Shown here piece by piece: positions 968 through 53,029 of a stretch of 64,000 bases of DNA. The translations under genes were made by a program, and so were the position numbers. The DNA is from Nanobdellota archaeon. Lineage in GTDB: Archaea > Nanobdellota > Nanobdellia > Pacearchaeales > GW2011-AR1. How positions within the stretch are numbered: position 1 is the first letter of the stretch; each line of letters begins with the position of its first letter. The stretch is from the NCBI GenBank assembly GCA_038045385.1, contig JBBSYE010000008.1, forward strand, positions 11,208 to 75,207. Direction: 5' to 3'. The notes below the pieces were generated by a model. It ran no database searches. It was not told the origin of the DNA and saw only the letters and a program-made list of their open reading frames with translations.

Positions 968-2668
968 ATGAGGGGTAAAAGATATCTGCTTTTTTTATTG
1001 CTTTTTACCTTTTGTTTATTTCAACTCTCTTTTTATTTAGCTTATGGACTGACTATAACTGGAAGAGCTGTAATGCAACAGGCTACTGTGAATATAACTA
1101 TTGTATCAACGGCTCCCTCTTTGAACATTAGTCGTCCTCTCAATGCGACTTATTTTACTAATCAGTCCCTTCCTTTAGCTTATTCTGTTAGTGGCGCTCT
1201 TAACGTGTGGTTCAACATTGATAATGGGGTAAATATTTCTCTTCCTGCTTCTTCTTATCAAGGTAATTTTAGTACTGGTGCTGGAAGTCATACGCTTTTT
1301 ATATTTGCTAACAACAGCGATTCTGTATTAACAAAAAAGAATGTTAGTTTTTTTGTTAATCTTACCGAGCATTATATAAATTATAGTGAATTCCAGGGAA
1401 ATTATTCTGGAAATTCTACAAACTTTGGCAGTTATAGTGAAGATGAACTTCAAAACTTGACTGGAATTAGATTTCAAGACATAAGGGCTGGGCAAATTTT
1501 CTTTCCAGGAGCAATAAATGTGACTAATGTTGGAGAATCTAATGTGGATATAAGCCAGTTCATAAACATTTCATTTAATCGCGTTGAGCTTAACTCTACG
1601 GGCTTGGGAAATTTTAATACTAGCGCGACTTTGTCTATTTATGATTTGAGCTTTTCTAATCCTTCTATATTAAGAGATGGCTCTGAATGTCCTTCTTCTA
1701 TTTGTACAGAACAGAGTTATTCTGATGGGAATTTTGTTTTTAACGTCACTGGATTTAGTACGTATAGTGCAGAAGAAAGTTCTTCTGATGACGATGGCGG
1801 TTCTGGTTCAAGTGGAAGCTCTGGAGGTTCTGGAGGCGGTGGCGGTGGTGGCGGAGGAGGAGGTGCAAGCGCAAAACCTACTCCGAAGATAACTGTTGAC
1901 CCTGAAACAATTTCAATTGGATTGGAACAAGGAGAAACTAAAGAAGGAGAATTTATGGTGAAAAATATAGATTCAAAGCTGAAAGATGTAAAAATTAAAG
2001 TTCTGAAAATAGAGGACATAATAAAATTAAATGAAGAAAATTTTATTCTCGAACCTGGGGAAGCTAAATCTGTGGGATTTGATGTGATTGCAAAAGAAAA
2101 TGCACTTGCTGAGACGAGAATTGGAAAAATAATCGTTTCGGCTTTCGGAGAGGCGCATGAAATCTTAGTAGCGATTAACATAAATCCGAGCGGGGCTCTT
2201 TTTGACTTAAAAGTGGGAATACTGAAGAAATACGAAACTGTGTTACCAGGAGAAGAGATAATAGCTACCTTGGATATATTTAACCTTGGGCAGCTTGGTG
2301 CGGTTGATGTGCTTATTGTTCATGAGCTTATTGATGAAAATGGGAATAGTGTTTCGAGGCAAGAGCAAAGCGTTGCTGTTGAGACTCAAGCAAGTTTCAT
2401 TATAAATCATAAAGTTCCGCTCGGACTTGAGCTTGGAAGATATGCTCTCGTAGTTTCTGTGGATTATGATGGGGGGAAGCAAGCTTCTACTAGCCACTGG
2501 GTAAATATCGGCAAAGAAGATTCTTTTTTTGATAATATTTCAATATCTGTTTCTCTGGGGATAACTATTGCTTTGATTTTGGTAATCGCGATTATCTTTG
2601 CTATAATAATTTTTGAGGATAGAAGAATGTTAGAAAATCTAAGGAAGGGCTCGAGGTATAAGAAGTGA
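968..2668 (+). CDS. Large surface protein with poly-Gly/Ser linker and C-terminal TM anchor
   Basis: 566 aa with a hydrophobic N-terminus and many N-x-S/T sequons. It has a GGSGSSGSSGGSGGGGGGGGGGG linker and a C-terminal TM followed by a basic tail. Confidence 0.6.
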   Translation: MRGKRYLLFLLLFTFCLFQLSFYLAYGLTITGRAVMQQATVNITIVSTAPSLNISRPLNATYFTNQSLPLAYSVSGALNVWFNIDNGVNISLPASSYQGNFSTGAGSHTLFIFANNSDSVLTKKNVSFFVNLTEHYINYSEFQGNYSGNSTNFGSYSEDELQNLTGIRFQDIRAGQIFFPGAINVTNVGESNVDISQFINISFNRVELNSTGLGNFNTSATLSIYDLSFSNPSILRDGSECPSSICTEQSYSDGNFVFNVTGFSTYSAEESSSDDDGGSGSSGSSGGSGGGGGGGGGGGASAKPTPKITVDPETISIGLEQGETKEGEFMVKNIDSKLKDVKIKVLKIEDIIKLNEENFILEPGEAKSVGFDVIAKENALAETRIGKIIVSAFGEAHEILVAININPSGALFDLKVGILKKYETVLPGEEIIATLDIFNLGQLGAVDVLIVHELIDENGNSVSRQEQSVAVETQASFIINHKVPLGLELGRYALVVSVDYDGGKQASTSHWVNIGKEDSFFDNISISVSLGITIALILVIAIIFAIIIFEDRRMLENLRKGSRYKK

Positions 2669-22017: not shown

Positions 22018-23835
22018 TTATTTCCCAATTTCTCTCAACTTCTTTAGAGTTTCTTCCATTTCTTTATCTAATCTAGAAGGCGCTCTTCTTTGAGGCTGTG
22101 ACGATACTGGAGCATATGGTCTAGTTTGCGAGGGTAGCATTGGGGGGAATGGAGGTCTTCTTGTTATAACTTGGGAAGACTTTAGTCCGCCGCGGTTTCT
22201 GAATTTGAAATACCAAAGCTGAAGCTTCTTACGATAAACTATGGCCAATACTACTAAGACTATTAGCAGAAGAAGTAAAATTATCCAGCCGTAGCTGCTC
22301 CCTGAAGAGCTTTCTGTATCTTTTGCGAAACAGCAAACTTCGCTAGATAAAGAGCATTGATCTGAACTTTCATCTTCAAATTCAAGGTCACATGAACTTT
22401 GACAGAAACCTCCTGATGATGTACATTGGTCTTCGCTTGTAGTTGAAGGCTCGCAAACTCCAGTGCAACAGCTTCCGTCTGATGAAGGAAGTTCTGTGCT
22501 TGAGCAGCGCTCATTGGATGTACAAACTTGCCCAAGAAGCTGAGAGCAAGATTTTCTGCTTGACTCTAGAGAACAGCATTTTAGTGAGCCTGAACAAACA
22601 TAATTGCCTAAAATTTCTCCGCCGCCATCAAGACATTCAAGAAGAGGGCTACATGAAAAACCTGCGGTTTGGCATTGTTCTATACTCCCTCCGCCCCCTA
22701 TTGAACCTGAACGGGAGGAATCTGGAAATGCGCTATAAAGGACGAATGCCGTGTCTCTTATGTTATTGTTGTTCCAGCAGCCTTTTGGAGTTTGAATGCT
22801 TTGTAGATAGGACTTTGCATTGTCTGATTCTGTTGACTGGCGACCTTGTAAAGCTAATAGTGCTAGCGATGTATCGTAGAATTTATTGTAAGGAGTGGTT
22901 GGAGCTTCCCAGAACTTGCTCTGCTTCTGTGCTTGGACAAGAGTTGAATAATGGTCATCTGCATTTGTAAGTTTGAAGATGAAAGAACTTGGAAGAAGAT
23001 TTTGATTCTCTGGAGCTAAAGCGAGAAGATATGGGATATAGGCAGAGATGTCGTCGCCAGCCTGTTGTAATGCAAGGGCTGCCCAAAGTGTTCCTTCATA
23101 ATCGCAGGAGCTAGAGAGCTTGAAGCATTTTGCATTTACTTGTTCTATTGTTGTGCCTGAAGATGAAGCTGAATGTGTATCTGGAGAAATGAATATGGTT
23201 TCTATTCCTGACTTTTGATATACTAATGTGCTAATAAAATCTTGATTGCAAGAGATTTCAAATTTCTGTTCTAGACAGCTTGAGGAAATTTGGAGCCAGA
23301 AGCCTGAAGGAATTACAGAAAGACAACTTCCTGCATCGCCTGAAATTTTTTGATCTTCTCCTATGTTAATCGTCCTTGTTGTTGAGCCTTGCTTTATTGT
23401 GCATGTGCTTGAGATGTGATTTGAAATGTCAATCATCACAAACCAGCTAAGATCGCTCGTGGAGCCATTGCGCTCATAAAGATATTTTTTTATGTCATTA
23501 GTATTTTTGCCGATATGATCATAGGCCAATAAAACTTGGGCAGTTTCTTTTAGTTTACAGGATGATTTTGGCCAGCAATTTTTGTTTGAACGCTCGTCTT
23601 CAATTTTATCTCTAGTTTTTTGGCTTTCTCCGAGAGCTAGAGTGCTGAATATTGCTTCACTTAAAGAGAGAGAGGAAGAGGTTTTGTTACCTAGCTCTGA
23701 TTCAAGGCATTGGTATGCTTTGTCTATTGAGTCGTCTGAAATATCTGCTGACGGGGAGGTTTGATTATCCGCCGCAAAAACTTGAGAGATAGATATCAAA
23801 AGAACTAATGTAAACAAAAAAACACCTTTTTTCAT
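22018..23835 (-). CDS. Surface protein: alpha/alpha-toroid (prenyltransferase/terpene-cyclase-like repeat) ectodomain, Cys-rich stalk, TM, Pro-rich cytoplasmic tail
   Basis: Has a signal peptide. Repeats include LWAALALQQAGDD, TSLALLALQGRQS and DTAFVLYSAF. A stalk with about 30 Cys (CCTGVCEP) precedes SSYGWIILL-TM and RRPPFPPMLPSQTRP. Confidence 0.6.
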   Translation of the reverse strand: MKKGVFLFTLVLLISISQVFAADNQTSPSADISDDSIDKAYQCLESELGNKTSSSLSLSEAIFSTLALGESQKTRDKIEDERSNKNCWPKSSCKLKETAQVLLAYDHIGKNTNDIKKYLYERNGSTSDLSWFVMIDISNHISSTCTIKQGSTTRTINIGEDQKISGDAGSCLSVIPSGFWLQISSSCLEQKFEISCNQDFISTLVYQKSGIETIFISPDTHSASSSGTTIEQVNAKCFKLSSSCDYEGTLWAALALQQAGDDISAYIPYLLALAPENQNLLPSSFIFKLTNADDHYSTLVQAQKQSKFWEAPTTPYNKFYDTSLALLALQGRQSTESDNAKSYLQSIQTPKGCWNNNNIRDTAFVLYSAFPDSSRSGSIGGGGSIEQCQTAGFSCSPLLECLDGGGEILGNYVCSGSLKCCSLESSRKSCSQLLGQVCTSNERCSSTELPSSDGSCCTGVCEPSTTSEDQCTSSGGFCQSSCDLEFEDESSDQCSLSSEVCCFAKDTESSSGSSYGWIILLLLLIVLVVLAIVYRKKLQLWYFKFRNRGGLKSSQVITRRPPFPPMLPSQTRPYAPVSSQPQRRAPSRLDKEMEETLKKLREIGK

Positions 23836-23877
23836 GTATATGTCTTAACTCTGCGATATTTAAAAAGGTTCTGTCAG

Positions 23878-44427: not shown

Positions 44428-47121
44428 ATGTTTAAATTTAAAAAAATTGCGTCTGTTATGGCATCAACTGCCTTAATGTTATCAACTGTTGGACTAGCAC
44501 TTGCTGCAAATTATCCTCAACCTTTCGAGAGTGCGGGTACTGCTGCAGTAGTCTGGGGAACCAATGCTGATAGCTCTGACATCGCTGCTGCTGCTAGTAT
44601 TGCAACTGGTTTGCAATCTGCACTAGGTGATGGAGGAAGTACAACGACGACAACTATAACTGGCGAAGCATTCCCATTATTTACTAGTGGAACTGAAATT
44701 TATTTGAACGATACACTTAACGTTGCTAGAACAACTGTAACTGATGATAACCTTCCTACAATCTTGGAGGATGGAGACTTTTCAGGTAATGTTGATGCGG
44801 AATACACACAAACTATTGTGATTCCAAGTAATAGCCGTGTTTTGTTCGGACAACAGCCTAGTAGTAATGATGATCCTACGGTTTTTGTAAATCTTGGAAC
44901 TAGCTCAACTGCTATTGTTTATAATACAACAATAACTTTTGATAGAGCGGTTAACTTGACTCATGCAGATTCTGAAGGAGAGGCATTAAACTTGTTTGGA
45001 ACTGAATGGACAATCGGAGCAGACACTGATGGAGATACAATTGTATTGTATCAATCTTCAGAGCGTATAGCTCTTTCCTTAGGCGGAAGTAGTCCTAATC
45101 CTTCTGCAACTGTTGAAGTTGAAGGCAATAGTTATACTATTGAACTTGTTTCTGCTAGCGATTCTGATGCAACTATTAGGGTAACTGATAGTAGTGGAGG
45201 TACGCAAAGCAAAGAAATCAATGAGGATGATTCAAAGCAAATAAATGGAATAGAAGTTTCTGTTTCATATGCTGATGAATCTGATGCGACTGGAACTGTT
45301 TCTGCTGAAGTTACTGTAGGTAGTCAAAAGATTATCTTGGAAACTGGGCAGGCGGTTAAAGTTGGTTCTGATGAAGAATCTCTTGATGGAACTCTTGTTA
45401 GCTTTAATGGTGGAACTGTTGGAGCAATGACTAAATTAGTTATCCAAACTTTCTCAGATGATACTGATGAAGATGCTCTTATTACTGGAGGCACTTTTGC
45501 AGACCCTACATGGGGATCTTTTATCATGCAATTCACAGAGACTAGCTCTGATTTGGATGATGAAGGAAGAGATATGATTACTGTTTCAGCTAATGGTGAC
45601 GATGAAATGAAAATTTCATTCACGGACCATCGAAGTGATACAAATTCATTCGTTTGGCTTAATAACCAATCTCAAACTATGAGGCTTGCTAATAGCAATG
45701 ATGGTAAGGAACTTCTAAAAGTTGCAGAAGGAACTGCTTTAAACAGGTCTATGTTCGCAGTTGTTGGAAATCAGGATGAGGGAACTTTGGTTCGCTTGAA
45801 GACTGTTTCCAATAGTAGCGGAGATACTAATGACGATATTGTTTTTGAGAATGTCTTTGACACATCAACAACATATAAAGCGTCTATAACTAGCGAGGGA
45901 GCTGGAACTATTGATATAGGTGGTCAAACATTTGCTGTATCATATGTTGGAGCTTCAACTTCTCCACAAGACATAGTTGTCAGGTTAAATTATCCTGATA
46001 CTACTGACTCTGGAAATATTGTTCTTTATCCTACGATAGAGACAGACAAGGGGGCCAAGGTATCATTCTATGAACCTTTGACCATGAACTTGACTGCAGG
46101 ATCTACAAGCGCGACTGTCGGATCTGTTAATGCGGCTATGCAGAATTATACTGTTGTTAATTCTGGAACGACAAATATCACTGGATTATTATTCCCTGAT
46201 GGAGATAACTATAACACAGCAACTGCTGTGTCATACTACCTTGGAGGGGGAGTTAACGCTAACGGTAACGTTACAGTGGGTGGCGTTTCTTTGAATGCGA
46301 CAATAAACTCTACACAGGGCCCAACAAGCACGACAATCACTTCAGGTAGACTTACCTATAACGTGACTATTTCGGGTCATAACACAGTTACTGTGTTCTT
46401 ACTCGATCCAGTTAATGGAGGAAATATTGTTACTCCTTCTGTTGTTATTTGGGAAGAAACTGAAGATAGAACTGACAATGAAGAAGCTCTTGTAGTTACA
46501 CTTACTGGTGGAGGAACAAGTGCATCTGAAACAGAGGTTGATACCGTTGTTTCAACTGCTACTACCCCTGGAACCACAACTGGAAATGGAAATAGCTATA
46601 CCACATTAGAATCTAACGATGATTTGTCTCAAATTTTGACCTTGTATGGAACACTTGTCACACTTGACAATCCTACAAGCGGACAAAAGAGTGCGAAATT
46701 ATCATATCCTGACGATCAAGTTCAGGCAATGGTATACTTCACTGAGGCAACTGCTTCGGTAGGTGATGGTGCTACAAACACTGGCGTTGTTACAATCAGA
46801 GACTCGGAAGCAAGCACATATTCCTCAAGGAATATGGTTGTTGTTGGAGGAAGCTGCGTAAACACTGTAGCTGCTCAATTATTGGGCTCAAGTTGCGGAT
46901 CAAGCTTTACAAGCAGTACTGGAGCAGGTTCTGGTGAGTATATCATCGAGACCTTCACTTCACCTTTCTCAAGCAGCAAAGTTGCTGTACTTGTGGCTGG
47001 TTACAATGCTGATGACACTGAGAATGCCGCTACATACCTAAGAACACAGACTGTTGACACAACTGTCGGCAAGAAGTACAAAGGTACAACCGGAACTCAG
47101 GCGATACTTCAAACTGTTTAA
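44428..47121 (+). CDS. Probable S-layer protein
   Basis: Signal peptide ...STVGLALA. 897 aa, Thr/Ser/Asn/Gly-rich, with many N-x-S/T sequons. C-terminal VVVGGSCVNTVAAQLLG and VAVLVAGYNADDTENAATYL match archaeal S-layer domains. Confidence 0.6.
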   Translation: MFKFKKIASVMASTALMLSTVGLALAANYPQPFESAGTAAVVWGTNADSSDIAAAASIATGLQSALGDGGSTTTTTITGEAFPLFTSGTEIYLNDTLNVARTTVTDDNLPTILEDGDFSGNVDAEYTQTIVIPSNSRVLFGQQPSSNDDPTVFVNLGTSSTAIVYNTTITFDRAVNLTHADSEGEALNLFGTEWTIGADTDGDTIVLYQSSERIALSLGGSSPNPSATVEVEGNSYTIELVSASDSDATIRVTDSSGGTQSKEINEDDSKQINGIEVSVSYADESDATGTVSAEVTVGSQKIILETGQAVKVGSDEESLDGTLVSFNGGTVGAMTKLVIQTFSDDTDEDALITGGTFADPTWGSFIMQFTETSSDLDDEGRDMITVSANGDDEMKISFTDHRSDTNSFVWLNNQSQTMRLANSNDGKELLKVAEGTALNRSMFAVVGNQDEGTLVRLKTVSNSSGDTNDDIVFENVFDTSTTYKASITSEGAGTIDIGGQTFAVSYVGASTSPQDIVVRLNYPDTTDSGNIVLYPTIETDKGAKVSFYEPLTMNLTAGSTSATVGSVNAAMQNYTVVNSGTTNITGLLFPDGDNYNTATAVSYYLGGGVNANGNVTVGGVSLNATINSTQGPTSTTITSGRLTYNVTISGHNTVTVFLLDPVNGGNIVTPSVVIWEETEDRTDNEEALVVTLTGGGTSASETEVDTVVSTATTPGTTTGNGNSYTTLESNDDLSQILTLYGTLVTLDNPTSGQKSAKLSYPDDQVQAMVYFTEATASVGDGATNTGVVTIRDSEASTYSSRNMVVVGGSCVNTVAAQLLGSSCGSSFTSSTGAGSGEYIIETFTSPFSSSKVAVLVAGYNADDTENAATYLRTQTVDTTVGKKYKGTTGTQAILQTV

Positions 47122-47246: not shown

Positions 47247-47780
47247 ATGAGAGCAATTGAAAGTTTTGAAGTGAGAGAGAAAAGAAGCAAAAGGAATAGA
47301 CTGATTATGGGCGTTCTTCTTATTGGCCTTATGGTGCTAAGTACAGCGGGTTACGCTTTTTATGGCGTGACTGATGCATCCGATTCTAATGTTTCAAGTG
47401 GGGGAATAAGATATGACGGAAGCTATTGGATATTTCCCTCAAGTTACTCGGATTTATATCTTTTTAATGACCCAACGAATATTGTTAAAGTTAATCTGAA
47501 TAATAGGGCTTTGAACTATGGGGGAAAGATCTTGTATATTGATTCTGAAGATAGCTTCGTTAGAGAGCATTTGGCTCTTAACTTGGGGACTTATTTTAAT
47601 GGAGTTTATGAGGCATGTTATGGTCCTTGCTTGAGAGACTTGCCTGAAAAAGATTGTAGTGAACCAATAATAATCTATCGAGATAGCTCAGAGAACTCTA
47701 TAAGGCAGGAACAGAATTGCTTTTTCATTAACGGAGATACAGGAGAGGTGGATAAGTTCATATTGAGCTTTACGCAATAA
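47247..47780 (+). CDS. Membrane-anchored hypothetical protein
   Basis: 177 aa with an N-terminal basic stretch plus TM (LIMGVLLIGLMVLSTAGYAF). Confidence 0.45.
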   Translation: MRAIESFEVREKRSKRNRLIMGVLLIGLMVLSTAGYAFYGVTDASDSNVSSGGIRYDGSYWIFPSSYSDLYLFNDPTNIVKVNLNNRALNYGGKILYIDSEDSFVREHLALNLGTYFNGVYEACYGPCLRDLPEKDCSEPIIIYRDSSENSIRQEQNCFFINGDTGEVDKFILSFTQ

Positions 47781-47821: not shown

Positions 47822-48496
47822 ATGACTGAAGACACTAAAATAGAAACTAAAGGAGAGAAAAAGAAGGAGAGAAAAATTGAGCATGAAATAATGTGGATAG
47901 TGGGTTTTGCAGTTGTGCTAGTGCTTATTTTTTTGGGAACTCAGCAGATTGTAAAATGGAATACTCAATTTGATTATGAGGGGCTGCATTTTACTAAAAC
48001 TAAAATAGGGAAAATTCCATTATATCATTATTATTATAACTTTGTTGATTCACAAGAAAATACTATAAGATATAATATGTATTTAAGAACAGATCCTAGA
48101 AAGAATGATATTCCTATTGATAGACCAGTGTTGATGACTACTAAACTCGCTTATGTTGCACTTGATTTAACGAGTGATTTGGAGGGATGTTCTGATAGTA
48201 ATCTTGCCGTCGGAGATTTTGCTTTATTTTTGCAACAGAATCAATTTGCCGTCAAGTCAGGTATTACTAATGAAAGTCTCGCGGACGAACTTGGGAAGGA
48301 TTATGTTACGTGTGAGCTTAAAGATACTGTTGAGGTTTTTGAAATAACTAGAGGTGAAGAAACTAGAATTGAATCTGAAGGTTTATGTACTAAAATTATT
48401 GTTGGTCCAGATTGCGAGATATTAAATGCTATAGAAAAGCTTAAAGTTTCAATAGTCTCTGATGCTCGTTCTAGAGCTCAAGGTCTTATTGGGTAG
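47822..48496 (+). CDS. Membrane-anchored hypothetical protein
   Basis: 224 aa with a K/E-rich N-terminus, then a TM (IMWIVGFAVVLVLIFLG). Confidence 0.45.
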   Translation: MTEDTKIETKGEKKKERKIEHEIMWIVGFAVVLVLIFLGTQQIVKWNTQFDYEGLHFTKTKIGKIPLYHYYYNFVDSQENTIRYNMYLRTDPRKNDIPIDRPVLMTTKLAYVALDLTSDLEGCSDSNLAVGDFALFLQQNQFAVKSGITNESLADELGKDYVTCELKDTVEVFEITRGEETRIESEGLCTKIIVGPDCEILNAIEKLKVSIVSDARSRAQGLIG

Positions 48497-49110
48497 CGTT
48501 TGCGTATCGTTCTATAAAGGAAGATTATTGGAATTAAAGCAATTATTAGTACAATTAATATCTCGCTGATGTAATCTTTAATTAATAATAAATTATTTCC
48601 AAAGAGTATGCCTAGATAAATTAATAATGCGCTCCAGAGTCCCGCGCCTATGGCTGTAAAAAGACTAAACTTGAATAAATTCATCCTAGTAAAACCTGCT
48701 GGGAGCGAGACGAAAGAGCGAAATGCTGGAATTAGACGACCAATTAAAGTGGTTATCTCACCATGATTATCAAAAAACTTTTCTGCGGTTGTTATATGCT
48801 CATGTTTGATGAAGAATATTTTTTCATATTTGAATAGAAGTTTATTTACTGCTCGCCTGCCTAGATGCCAGGCAAGAGAATAGTTTATTAGTGCGCCCGC
48901 GACGCTACCAAGAATGGCCATTAAAAGGACTAAAGTAAAAGATAACTGGCCTTGCGAGACCAAAACGCCAGCGGGAACTAATATTATTTCCGCTGGAAAG
49001 GGAATTATTGTGCTTTCAATAGTCATAAGAATAAATATTCCAAAGTAGCCCAAAGAACCTACGAGCGAAATCATGAGGTTTACAAATTGTTCTAATATCG
49101 CATTAAGCAT
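48478..49110 (-). CDS. DedA family membrane protein
   Basis: GYFGIFILMTIESTIIPFPAEIILVPAG and RLIPAFRSFVSLPAG are DedA/SNARE-associated signatures. Confidence 0.75.
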   Translation of the reverse strand: MLNAILEQFVNLMISLVGSLGYFGIFILMTIESTIIPFPAEIILVPAGVLVSQGQLSFTLVLLMAILGSVAGALINYSLAWHLGRRAVNKLLFKYEKIFFIKHEHITTAEKFFDNHGEITTLIGRLIPAFRSFVSLPAGFTRMNLFKFSLFTAIGAGLWSALLIYLGILFGNNLLLIKDYISEILIVLIIALIPIIFLYRTIRKRYPIRP

Positions 49111-49130: not shown

Positions 49131-49652
49131 CTATAAAAACTTGCTCTCGACTAAAAGAGATTTTATATCGCTGTAAATAGGAATCTCTTTTATTTTTAAT
49201 AGATATATATTCGCAAACCAAAGAAGAACTACGAAGATTGTGCTACCAATATACCAAGTCCATAGATGTGTAAAGTCAAAATACTTGAAACCTTTATAGA
49301 AGAAAATGCCGAAAACTATTATTCTTGCTACATTTACTAGATAGAAAGAAAAGAGAAGAAAAACTAGACTCTTTAGTCTTTTAGCTAAACTCATGGGAGT
49401 TGTTAAATTTAATATTAAGAGGAAATAATATGCAGAGCCTGCGATACAAGCATCGACTATATGTGCAAAATAGCCTTTGAAGCCAATTACATTACCTCCA
49501 TAGAGAGTTGCATCATAGAGATAATCGAATGCGTAGAAGACTGGATAGACCGTTAGAGGAGTGGCTATCGTGTATATTATCGCGATGTTTATCCCTAGAA
49601 TAAGAAGGATAATATAACGAATTGATAGAGAAACTGATTGATTATAGTCCAT
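49131..49652 (-). CDS. Small archaeosortase/exosortase-family protein
   Basis: 173 aa, polytopic. FAHIVDACIAGSAYYF gives a candidate Cys69, LVNVARII gives Arg110 (41 residues after the Cys, as I recall for ArtA), and FTHLW gives His129. Confidence 0.55.
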   Translation of the reverse strand: MDYNQSVSLSIRYIILLILGINIAIIYTIATPLTVYPVFYAFDYLYDATLYGGNVIGFKGYFAHIVDACIAGSAYYFLLILNLTTPMSLAKRLKSLVFLLFSFYLVNVARIIVFGIFFYKGFKYFDFTHLWTWYIGSTIFVVLLWFANIYLLKIKEIPIYSDIKSLLVESKFL

Positions 49653-49696
49653 TAAAGGTATAAAAAATTGAACTATAAATTGTTATCTATGAAGAT

Positions 49697-51337
49697 TTAT
49701 CTTTTAGCAAGTCTTATTGCTACAACGATAACAAGTATCAATAGTATTACATTGATAGCCCCGATTATCCAGATAAGATTGTTTCCGCCAAAGTCAAACG
49801 ATAAGCTCTTACTTGTAACATCGACTTCAACTTCTTGTCTGTCAACAGAGCCATTTGAATCTGTTTCAATGAAGAAGCTTTGTGTTCCGTCTGCATCTTC
49901 ATCTACATTGAACACGATTGTTACTTCAGCTGATTCGCCAGCATCAAGATTCAATAATCTCTCTGATACGTCGTCTAATGAAGCCCAGTCTTCATAACCG
50001 CTTAAAGCTATAATGAAAGTTCCATCGCTATCGCCAGTATTTCTAACTCTTGCAGTGATAGTCAATTGTTCTCCTGCTTTTGCATCTGAATCAAGAGATG
50101 CTGTTATGCTTGCTGAACCGCTATCTACATTACCAGGATTTCCAGTATTATCTGGAGAACAACCGATAACTTTCAAAGTTCCTAAGAACTTATCTTCAGA
50201 TTCAACATCGTAATCATCGCTATTGTCGTCATAGTCGTAGAATGTTGTGAACTCAAGATTATAGTTTCCATCGGTAGCGCTATCAGGGATTTCAAAGTTG
50301 AACTCTAGAGTTTTATCATCGCCTTCATCAAGATCTTCTCTTATTACAAAGTCTTGACTTATGCCTAGTTGAGCGTTTCTCATTTGAATTTTAACTTGAT
50401 CTTCATTCTGGCTTCCGATATTGAATACCGTGAAAGCTCCGCTTATTGTTTCTCCACATGTTGCTTGAGCTGGTAGCTCTATATCATCAACTACTATTGT
50501 TTTTTCGTCATCTGTTTCTTTCTTTACAGAGATACTTGTGAAAACTTTTCCTTGGAATTCATCTGAACAATCTCTTGCTTGGCCAGTATCATCACTATAT
50601 GCTTTGAATGCTAGCTTGTAGTTTCCTGAATCAAAATCTGCAGGAACTTTGAATTCGAAAGAGACTGTGTCGTCATCGTCATCGCCAAGATTACCAAGAT
50701 CTGCTTCTTCTTCATCAGAACTTGTGAAATCAAGATCATTAACAACATTTCTTCCTGCGCTATCGAATAAGCCCATTTCTACAATAACGTCATCAATGTC
50801 GTCATTTCCGTTGTTTTCAACATCAACATCAATAGATAAAACATCAAGAGGCATCCATTCCTCATCTTTATCTCCGCTATTGCTAACATCAACATCTTTG
50901 ATTGAAAGATTTGCGCCAGCTGGTCCGTTTGAACAGAATCCAGTTTGGAAATTAAGAGTTACTATCTTTGTAAAAGGAGCGCTTCCTGCATTTGAAATTC
51001 CAGTTATATTAAGTGTTCTTGAGAATTCTGAAACTGGAAAGCTTGTTAAATCGCTTCCTGTTAAGGTAATATTATATCTAAGACTTGTAGCCACATTATC
51101 TGCTGAACCGATTGGAGTTACTGCAAGATTGATTGTTTTTCCATCAAGAGTTTGACTTGAACCGCCAATTAAAGTAGCTGTGAAGTTTGTAACTTCTCCA
51201 GTGTTATCTACTTGAAGAGTAGTGCCTTTCTTTGTTACAGCAACAGAATCTGGAGCAGTAAATACAACTGCAGCGAAAACTAGACTTGATAATAGAACTG
51301 CTGTAATCAAAAATGCTGAAAGTAATTTCATATTCAT
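49697..51337 (-). CDS. Acidic surface protein (CARDB-like repeats) with C-terminal motif-TM-basic tail
   Basis: Signal peptide MNMKLLSAFLITAVLLSSLVFA. C-terminus is SLSFDFGGNNLIWIIGAINVILLILVIVVAIRLAKR. It lies immediately upstream of the sortase-like gene on the same strand. Confidence 0.65.
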   Translation of the reverse strand: MNMKLLSAFLITAVLLSSLVFAAVVFTAPDSVAVTKKGTTLQVDNTGEVTNFTATLIGGSSQTLDGKTINLAVTPIGSADNVATSLRYNITLTGSDLTSFPVSEFSRTLNITGISNAGSAPFTKIVTLNFQTGFCSNGPAGANLSIKDVDVSNSGDKDEEWMPLDVLSIDVDVENNGNDDIDDVIVEMGLFDSAGRNVVNDLDFTSSDEEEADLGNLGDDDDDTVSFEFKVPADFDSGNYKLAFKAYSDDTGQARDCSDEFQGKVFTSISVKKETDDEKTIVVDDIELPAQATCGETISGAFTVFNIGSQNEDQVKIQMRNAQLGISQDFVIREDLDEGDDKTLEFNFEIPDSATDGNYNLEFTTFYDYDDNSDDYDVESEDKFLGTLKVIGCSPDNTGNPGNVDSGSASITASLDSDAKAGEQLTITARVRNTGDSDGTFIIALSGYEDWASLDDVSERLLNLDAGESAEVTIVFNVDEDADGTQSFFIETDSNGSVDRQEVEVDVTSKSLSFDFGGNNLIWIIGAINVILLILVIVVAIRLAKR

Positions 51338-51449
51338 TTTGTGTTGTAACTCTGCAATTACTATGGTATTTAAACTTTTCTATTATAGAGAAGATACTAG
51401 ATTTTGAGAGTTTAGGCAATTATATATACTTTAGTCGTCTCTATTTTTT

Positions 51450-52246: not shown

Positions 52247-52627
52247 CTAATAGTCTTCTAAAGGATTAACTTTCTTCTCTGGAGCTAAAGCTTTGTGAAC
52301 TTCAGCGAATTGAGGAGTAGCGATTATTGTGTTTTCTCCGAAGCCTGCGATTGAGCCTTCAAGAGCTTCAATTGTCTTCTTGATTTTAGCGATTGCACGC
52401 TTTAGCTCTACAATATCCTTAGATTTTAGAGGTTTTATATCAATTATAGCTATTGTATAGCCTTCTCTTAGTGAATTTAGAATTTCATTGATATCGTCAT
52501 ACTGCTTTAACGAGAAAGGACGAACGATTACTTTGTTCTTTGACTCTTGAGCTTGAGTAACGTCAATTTCAAGGTAGTCTTCCGAAGGTCTTGAACCTCC
52601 GAACACGCTCTTTAAGTTAAATGCCAT
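52247..52627 (-). CDS. sepF: Cell division protein SepF (DUF552)
   Basis: VIVRPFSLKQYDDINEILNSLREGYTIAIIDIKPL...LKRAIAKIKKTIEALEGSIAGFGENTIIATP matches the SepF core. Confidence 0.7.
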   Translation of the reverse strand: MAFNLKSVFGGSRPSEDYLEIDVTQAQESKNKVIVRPFSLKQYDDINEILNSLREGYTIAIIDIKPLKSKDIVELKRAIAKIKKTIEALEGSIAGFGENTIIATPQFAEVHKALAPEKKVNPLEDY

Positions 52628-52708: not shown

Positions 52709-53029
52709 CTAATTTATCGGAGACTTTTCTATTTCTCGACGGATATCTTCAGATTTTTTTTCAAGAATTTTTTGTTGTTTTTCAAAACTTTGCATTTTAG
52801 TCTCAACTATAGTCTTTTTTTTCTGTAAATCCTCAAGAACTTTCTTCTTATCTGCTCTTATCATTACTGAACTAACTACTTGATAGACCTCTCCGGTTGA
52901 TGATTTGACTTCTCCTAGTGCAGTATTGAGTTCATTTAGCTCCATTTCTGAAGTTTGGAACTGCATTAAGATAGCTTGAAGATTTTGTTCTATAATTCCT
53001 AATTCTTGTATGTGCCTTGATGGGTTCAT
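52709..53029 (-). CDS. pfdB: Prefoldin beta subunit
   Basis: 106 aa with coiled coil, beta hairpins, coiled coil: QNLQAILMQFQTSEMELNELNTALGEV...VYQVVSSVMIRADKKKVLEDL. Confidence 0.7.
   Translation of the reverse strand: MNPSRHIQELGIIEQNLQAILMQFQTSEMELNELNTALGEVKSSTGEVYQVVSSVMIRADKKKVLEDLQKKKTIVETKMQSFEKQQKILEKKSEDIRREIEKSPIN

Follow-up and report, generated by a model that had tools for sequence, protein, structure and literature searches.

The 64,000-nucleotide (nt) stretch of contig JBBSYE010000008.1 from a Nanobdellota archaeon (referred to below as the window, by which the whole of this stretch is meant) carries on its minus strand a gene for a 546-amino acid (aa) acidic surface protein followed by a gene for a 173-aa polytopic membrane protein, and the two very likely constitute a dedicated one-enzyme, one-substrate pair, which is a member of the curated pacearchaeosortase/PACE-CTERM system of Pacearchaeota-type DPANN archaea. 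The assignment rests on the membership of both proteins in established families, on invariant residues of the enzyme and their position in the membrane, on a conserved C-terminal tail that is limited to a single protein family, and on the adjacency of the two genes. A preliminary description of the locus had proposed a dedicated sorting and anchoring system with a motif different from PGF-CTERM; of this, the archaeosortase located beside its substrate and the non-PGF signal have stood, while the system itself is not a novel one, as each of the two proteins falls into a curated NCBIfam family.

The two open reading frames (ORFs) lie where they had been described, with the substrate gene (49697..51337) separated by 44 nt (49653-49696) from the sortase gene (49131..49652). 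A comparison of 80 fetched loci, from different species, shows exactly one tail-bearing gene upstream of the sortase gene and on the same strand in 75 of them, the median distance between the two genes being 111 nt. Of the five exceptions, two lie at contig ends, another two (L054 and L066) have unrelated upstream genes, and the fifth (L068) is a second sortase copy lacking an adjacent substrate gene, from a genome in which a complete pair is present as well. Given this substrate-then-sortase order and the full-length matches of both proteins far above the family cutoffs, there is nothing material in which the locus differs from the NF033505/NF033506 system, of which it is a member.

The sortase, its family and its invariant residues

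The 173-aa protein matches the NCBIfam model NF033505, "pacearchaeosortase", with 195.8 bits against a cutoff of 80 (E 5.4e-58), and the match extends over its full length, residues 7-170 being aligned to profile positions 2-166 of 167. The archaeosortase-like nature that had been ascribed to it is thereby borne out by hidden Markov model searches, in which the exosortase/archaeosortase core model TIGR04178 also reaches E <= 0.01 in 32 out of 32 aligned homologues (best 1.1e-7). Of the other models for small archaeosortases, those of heimdallarchaeosortase (NF045528) and ArtE (TIGR04124, profile length 153) are the nearest in sequence, being matched at E <= 0.01 by 27 and 17 of the 32 homologues, respectively; these are nevertheless separate subfamilies with other cognate signals, and the window protein scores only 17.9 bits against a cutoff of 130 with the former and 15.7 against 95 with the latter. 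The ArtA model TIGR04125 attains E <= 0.01 in only four of the 32 homologues and gives no match to the window protein at E <= 1, and a Pfam search of the sortase returned nothing, so that it is recognized by NCBIfam only. An identical protein (P0001) is already present in a public protein collection, and public records label the homologues of the two proteins as "pacearchaeosortase" and "putative S-layer protein". Relatives occur in 420 species-level genomes, all of them metagenome-assembled genomes of DPANN archaea labelled Pacearchaeota, Woesearchaeota or Nanoarchaeota, and each of two such genomes holds two pacearchaeosortase genes on separate contigs (L018/L068 and L020/L039).

The AlphaFold2 model of the protein (predicted local distance difference test score, pLDDT, 83.6; predicted template modelling score 0.77), taken together with hydropathy and charge distribution, predicts four membrane helices, with both termini cytoplasmic and a small β-sheet (residues 49-64) outside. 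Nearly invariant Cys, Arg and His residues at the outside-facing ends of three successive membrane helices are a hallmark of exosortases and archaeosortases. Consistent with that, translation and codons confirm the three peptides which the preliminary description had picked out, HIVDACIAGSA with Cys69 (codon tgt, 49446..49448, minus strand), LVNVARIIVFG with Arg110 (aga, 49323..49325, minus strand) and YFDFTHLWTWY with His129 (cat, 49266..49268, minus strand), and all three residues are invariant in the alignment of the 32 homologues, which are 46-73% identical. In the model they lie at or close to the outside-facing ends of helices 2 (67-83), 3 (89-119) and 4 (125-151): Cys69, the putative catalytic nucleophile, and His129 occupy the outer starts of helices 2 and 4, respectively, and Arg110 is found in the outer half of helix 3.

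The spacing of 41 residues between Cys69 and Arg110 is fixed, because none of the 32 sequences has a gap between them, and the same distance separates Cys173 from Arg214 in ArtA of Haloferax volcanii, in which these two residues and Arg253 are experimentally critical (PMC9263693); the value given for ArtA in the preliminary description was thus correct. The two enzymes have in common that they are polytopic membrane proteins, that their main substrates are cell-surface or S-layer-type proteins, and that these substrates carry a tripartite C-terminal signal. They differ in size, since artA genes of 834-912 bp encode proteins of 277-303 aa (PMC7157517), in comparison to which the four-helix protein of 173 aa has a little over half the length and may fairly be called miniature. 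They differ also in the number of substrates, which for ArtA ranges from 1 to 52 per genome (PMC6098224), as opposed to the one substrate family found here.

The substrate and its C-terminal signal

The 546-aa protein matches NF033506, "PACE-CTERM-PROT, putative S-layer protein", over residues 33-546 with 486 bits against a cutoff of 110 (E 1.9e-145). It was described as an acidic surface protein, and in agreement with this it has an isoelectric point of 4.05, with 100 D+E against 33 K+R residues, 5 N-x-S/T sequons, and an N-terminal Sec-type signal peptide (MNMKLLSAFLITAVLLSSLVFAAVVFTAP; 51251..51337, minus strand) read directly from the translation. The Pfam matches are to CARDB and DUF4352, so that only CARDB/immunoglobulin-like domains are recognized in the protein by that database. 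Its C-terminus, ...SLSFDFGGNNLIWIIGAINVILLILVIVVAIRLAKR, is the one that had been given for it, and the last 36 aa (49700..49807, minus strand) make up the PACE-CTERM sorting signal, SLSFDFGGNNLIWIIG-AINVILLILVIVVAI-RLAKR, which consists of a signature, a membrane helix with a central Asn, and a basic end.

This tripartite tail is strikingly alike in the 79 homologues of the protein and is conserved in 139 further representatives (50% identity clusters), whose consensus reads [FL]-G-[GD]-N(88%)-x-L-[IL]-W(99%)-[VI]-I-G(79%)-x-x-N(100%)-x-x-L(100%)-I-I-L-I(100%)-I-x-V-A(100%)-V-[RK]-x-[SA]-[RK]-[RK]-end, with percentages that are somewhat inflated because they were drawn from the top-scoring matches. 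The tail does not contain the PGF motif; in the place of P-G-F of the ArtA substrates it has G-[GD]-N-x-L-[IL]-W-x-I-G, followed by a near-invariant helix with the invariant intramembrane Asn, and the conservation of the helix, including this Asn, is unusual among sortase-type signals. A divergent subgroup of the substrates (P0178, P0180, P0182, P0185-P0189, P0193 and P0194) ends instead in a longer tail of the form ...N-W-F-I-Y-x-I-I-x-x-N-I-I-L-I-I-A-I-I-x-V-x-R..., with a non-RR ending, and may be paired with a variant sortase.

A profile of the tail was built from the C-terminal 42 residues of 42 members of the family, with the window protein and its 93% twin left out, and was used to score the 368 ORFs of the window, among which the 546-aa protein obtained 62.3 bits (E 4e-19) and the next best 4.9 bits; the latter match, in the ORF at 22018-23844, lies inside that ORF and is noise. 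When the same profile was run against 1.84 billion representative proteins, it retrieved 514 representatives. In each of the top 150, the match is located at the very C-terminal end, and 127 of the 129 top matches that could be tested share the body of the family even without the tail, the remaining two having the appearance of chimeric gene calls which nevertheless end in the family's last domain. The profile scores, the tails of relatives and the database-wide search thus agree that the PACE-CTERM signal belongs to one protein family.

This outcome bears directly on the proposal, made in the preliminary description, of a system with several substrates, in which the sortase would read a signal S-F-x..N..(I/L)G shared by the 546-aa protein, a 184-aa protein (381-917) and a 566-aa protein (968-2668, plus strand). 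The tails quoted for the latter two are correct as letters, all three tails fit the loose pattern, each consists of a membrane helix followed by basic residues, and SSNLVYIG in the tail of the 184-aa protein faintly resembles N-x-L-I-W-x-I-G. However, "S-F" is not conserved in the family, and a regular expression fitted to the three tails matches only eight of 73 genuine PACE-CTERM tails (and none of the 165 other anchored ORFs of the related loci), while the tail profile, which gives 62.3 bits for the true substrate, passes over the other two proteins with -1.4 bits for the 184-aa and -6.0 bits for the 566-aa protein. The loose motif must be regarded as a post-hoc pattern, with 0.68 matches in shuffled tails against the two non-family matches observed, in the very sequences to which the expression was fitted. 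Neither tail is kept by relatives, as the four homologues of the 184-aa protein retain its N-terminal domain and have unrelated tails, and the sole relative of the 566-aa protein among the representative genomes of GTDB has a cytoplasmic domain of approximately 85 aa after the helix. Database-wide the tail is limited to the one family, and in none of the 80 loci does a further tail-bearing ORF occur within 10 kb. The shared signal is therefore largely refuted, and the chance that the sortase serves the other two proteins by means of it is minimal. Both are generic membrane-anchored proteins, the 566-aa protein being an ordinary type-I membrane protein. The GG_III-CTERM and LPXTG anchor models match the 184-aa protein below threshold, which reflects only its helix and basic residues, and these matches were set aside. 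The 566-aa protein also carries, around residues 270-300, a long Gly/Ser run (GGSGSSGSSGGSGGGGGGGGGGGASAK), and its N-x-S/T sequons number 19.

Some further features are found within and just upstream of the pair. An TTTAAATA box at 51365-51372 (minus strand), some 30 nt upstream of the substrate ATG, fits an archaeal promoter, and a T6 run (ttttttata) inside the 44-nt gap could lessen read-through transcription of the sortase gene. On the strand opposite the substrate gene, long ORFs at 49668-49997 and 50649-51155 (both plus strand) have "homologues" in 32 and 54 loci; they were rejected as genes, being shadow ORFs of the conserved coding strand.

Proposed mechanism and the arguments for and against it

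In the model proposed here for the pair, the 546-aa protein would be exported by Sec via its N-terminal signal peptide and would then be retained for a time in the membrane by the C-terminal helix with its basic end, where the four-helix sortase would recognize the G-[GD]-N-x-L-I-W-x-I-G signature and the near-invariant helix within the membrane. Cys69, with help from the other two residues of the outer face, Arg110 and His129, would attack near the G-[GD]-N signature, which would produce a thioester and release the helix together with the basic tail, following which the acyl-enzyme would most likely be resolved by a membrane lipid (a lipid amine or a similar nucleophile), yielding a lipid-anchored surface protein, as has been proposed for ArtA. 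Cleavage, the thioester intermediate and lipid attachment are put forward by analogy with Haloferax volcanii ArtA, the one studied archaeosortase, in which cleavage and lipid attachment are coupled (PMC7157517, PMC6098224).

It has to be noted that several points weigh against the reading of the locus as a sorting pair of this kind. The 173-aa protein itself obtains only 21.9 bits (E 1.6e-4) with TIGR04178, which lies just below the curated cutoff of 23, and searches of the PDB with the sortase, by sequence and by fold (best E 1.4), returned no relative and no exosortase or archaeosortase structure. The name "pacearchaeosortase" occurs in no paper found in the literature searched, and the family is characterized here from sequence, predicted structure and gene context. 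The Cys/Arg/His triad named in the preliminary description has stood insofar as the set is invariant, but since the third critical residue of ArtA is Arg253 and not a His, the third invariant residue of the present family, His129, can only be assigned a presumptive role. Lastly, the tail helix is conserved beyond what a helix that is simply discarded would need, which could mean that it is retained.

This last point leads to an alternative in which the near-invariant helix with its central Asn serves as a permanent anchor, remaining in the membrane in a stable helix-helix complex with the sortase-like protein or with another partner. The conservation of N, L, I and A at 100% and of W at 99% in the top-scoring representatives does exceed generic hydrophobicity, but, as said, these values come from the best-scoring matches and are inflated, and recognition within the membrane by a minimal four-helix enzyme would explain the conservation of the helix equally well. 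Moreover, invariant Cys, Arg and His residues on the outer face, with an ArtA-like spacing, argue for catalysis, and a permanent anchor is accordingly rated very improbable.

A second alternative accepts catalysis but confines it to proteolysis, such that the membrane helix would be cut off and the surface protein released or handed over without a lipid, its retention at the surface being due to protein contacts, for example with the 897-aa or 224-aa proteins encoded nearby. A Cys/Arg/His active site directly implies proteolysis only, no gene for an archaetidylserine synthase or decarboxylase was seen among the neighbours checked, and DPANN archaea generally have reduced lipid biosynthesis. 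Against this, cleavage and lipid attachment are coupled in ArtA, as cited above, and the usual downstream neighbour of the sortase gene is a lipid-transporter gene. Both alternatives are rated low because of the invariant catalytic set and of this transporter neighbour, and an enzyme that acts as a peptidase only is considered unlikely, although less so than the permanent anchor; sorting with lipid attachment remains the preferred reading.

Gene neighbourhood and a possible link to lipid transport

Downstream of the sortase gene by 20 nt, on the same strand, lies a gene (48478..49110) for a DedA/VTT-domain membrane protein of the UptA-like lipid or polyprenyl-phosphate transporter family, with a PF09335 VTT domain (E 1.7e-19) and a match to NF052604 (UptA) of 112 bits, below the cutoff of 250. 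Among the 76 loci that are informative for the gene downstream of the sortase, a DedA/VTT gene adjoins it in 53, on the same strand in 50, while in L059 (4045-4950) and L066 (7162-8082), neither of which has an adjacent DedA gene, the same-strand downstream slot is occupied by a DUF368 gene (PF04018, E 1e-66 and 8e-61; NF052564 polyprenyl-phosphate transporter, 207 bits, cutoff 400). DedA (UptA) and DUF368 (PopT), which are unrelated, are the two families known to transport undecaprenyl phosphate, and genes of both are found in the same place after the sortase gene. The scores are, however, below the equivalog cutoffs (112 vs 250; 207 vs 400), and the matches therefore do not name the transported lipid.

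DedA is probably the third gene of the cassette, and its exchange for DUF368 suggests a non-orthologous replacement in a functional slot. As the region from approximately 41 to 53 kb is broadly syntenic, adjacency is in itself weaker evidence than this replacement, which in turn points to a needed function rather than to a chance adjacency. A three-gene module consisting of the substrate, a minimal archaeosortase, and a polyprenyl-phosphate or lipid transporter (DedA in about 70% of the loci, DUF368/PopT in two) may be advanced tentatively on these grounds, but is regarded as doubtful. The occurrence of DedA and DUF368 in the slot after the sortase is possibly novel, as a literature search found no paper linking either family to archaeosortases. 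An ArtA gene can likewise adjoin lipid-related genes, as in the artA-pssA-pssD order of Methanosarcina (PMC7157517). DUF368 is also frequent in archaeal S-layer glycosylation clusters; when the conserved flank (38.8-43.7 kb) was searched with Pfam for genes of glycosylation, there were no matches.

Convergent with the cassette is a gene on the plus strand (47822..48496) for a 224-aa protein with an N-terminal membrane helix, which overlaps the 3' end of the DedA gene by 19 nt. Its homologues occur in 73 of the 80 loci, convergently in 71, which makes its conservation as a neighbour comparable to that of the substrate, and four of its cysteines (C123, C164, C189 and C198) are invariant. The protein has no match in Pfam or NCBIfam, its family profile finds nothing in the PDB, and a structure model from the single sequence was unusable (pLDDT 42). 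Beyond it lies the S-layer candidate of the preliminary description (44428-47121, plus strand), an 897-aa acidic, Thr/Ser-rich, secreted and anchor-less protein without a family match, which is conserved in 54 loci and which, as had been stated, does not have the tail: no C-terminal membrane helix is present and the tail profile gives -0.1 bits. A 177-aa N-terminally anchored protein (47247-47780, plus strand) is conserved in 67 loci. It may be speculated that these proteins and the anchored PACE-CTERM protein jointly build a surface layer of two components, an anchor and a canopy, comparable to SlaB/SlaA of Sulfolobus. Just upstream of the cassette, genes for SepF (52247-52627, minus strand; PF04472, E 8e-10) and prefoldin beta (52709-53029, minus strand) are conserved in that position in 53 and 52 loci, respectively.

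For annotation, the value of these findings is ordinary, in that the gene pair, which comes from a Pacearchaeota-type DPANN archaeon, can be labelled confidently. With four helices and 173 aa, the enzyme is about the smallest of the known archaeosortases, and because only one substrate, with a very clearly defined signal, belongs to it, the pair offers a clean minimal model for the recognition and cutting of targets within the membrane by exosortase-type enzymes. In the recurrent DedA/DUF368 slot there is a link, open to testing, between the anchoring of proteins by their C-termini and the transport of lipid carriers. Should the three-gene module prove true, the transporter could supply the sortase with the lipid acceptor at the outer leaflet or, alternatively, could recycle the dolichol-phosphate carrier for the glycosylation of the same surface protein; in both cases, organisms that synthesize little or no lipid themselves would have their anchoring tied to the traffic of lipids.

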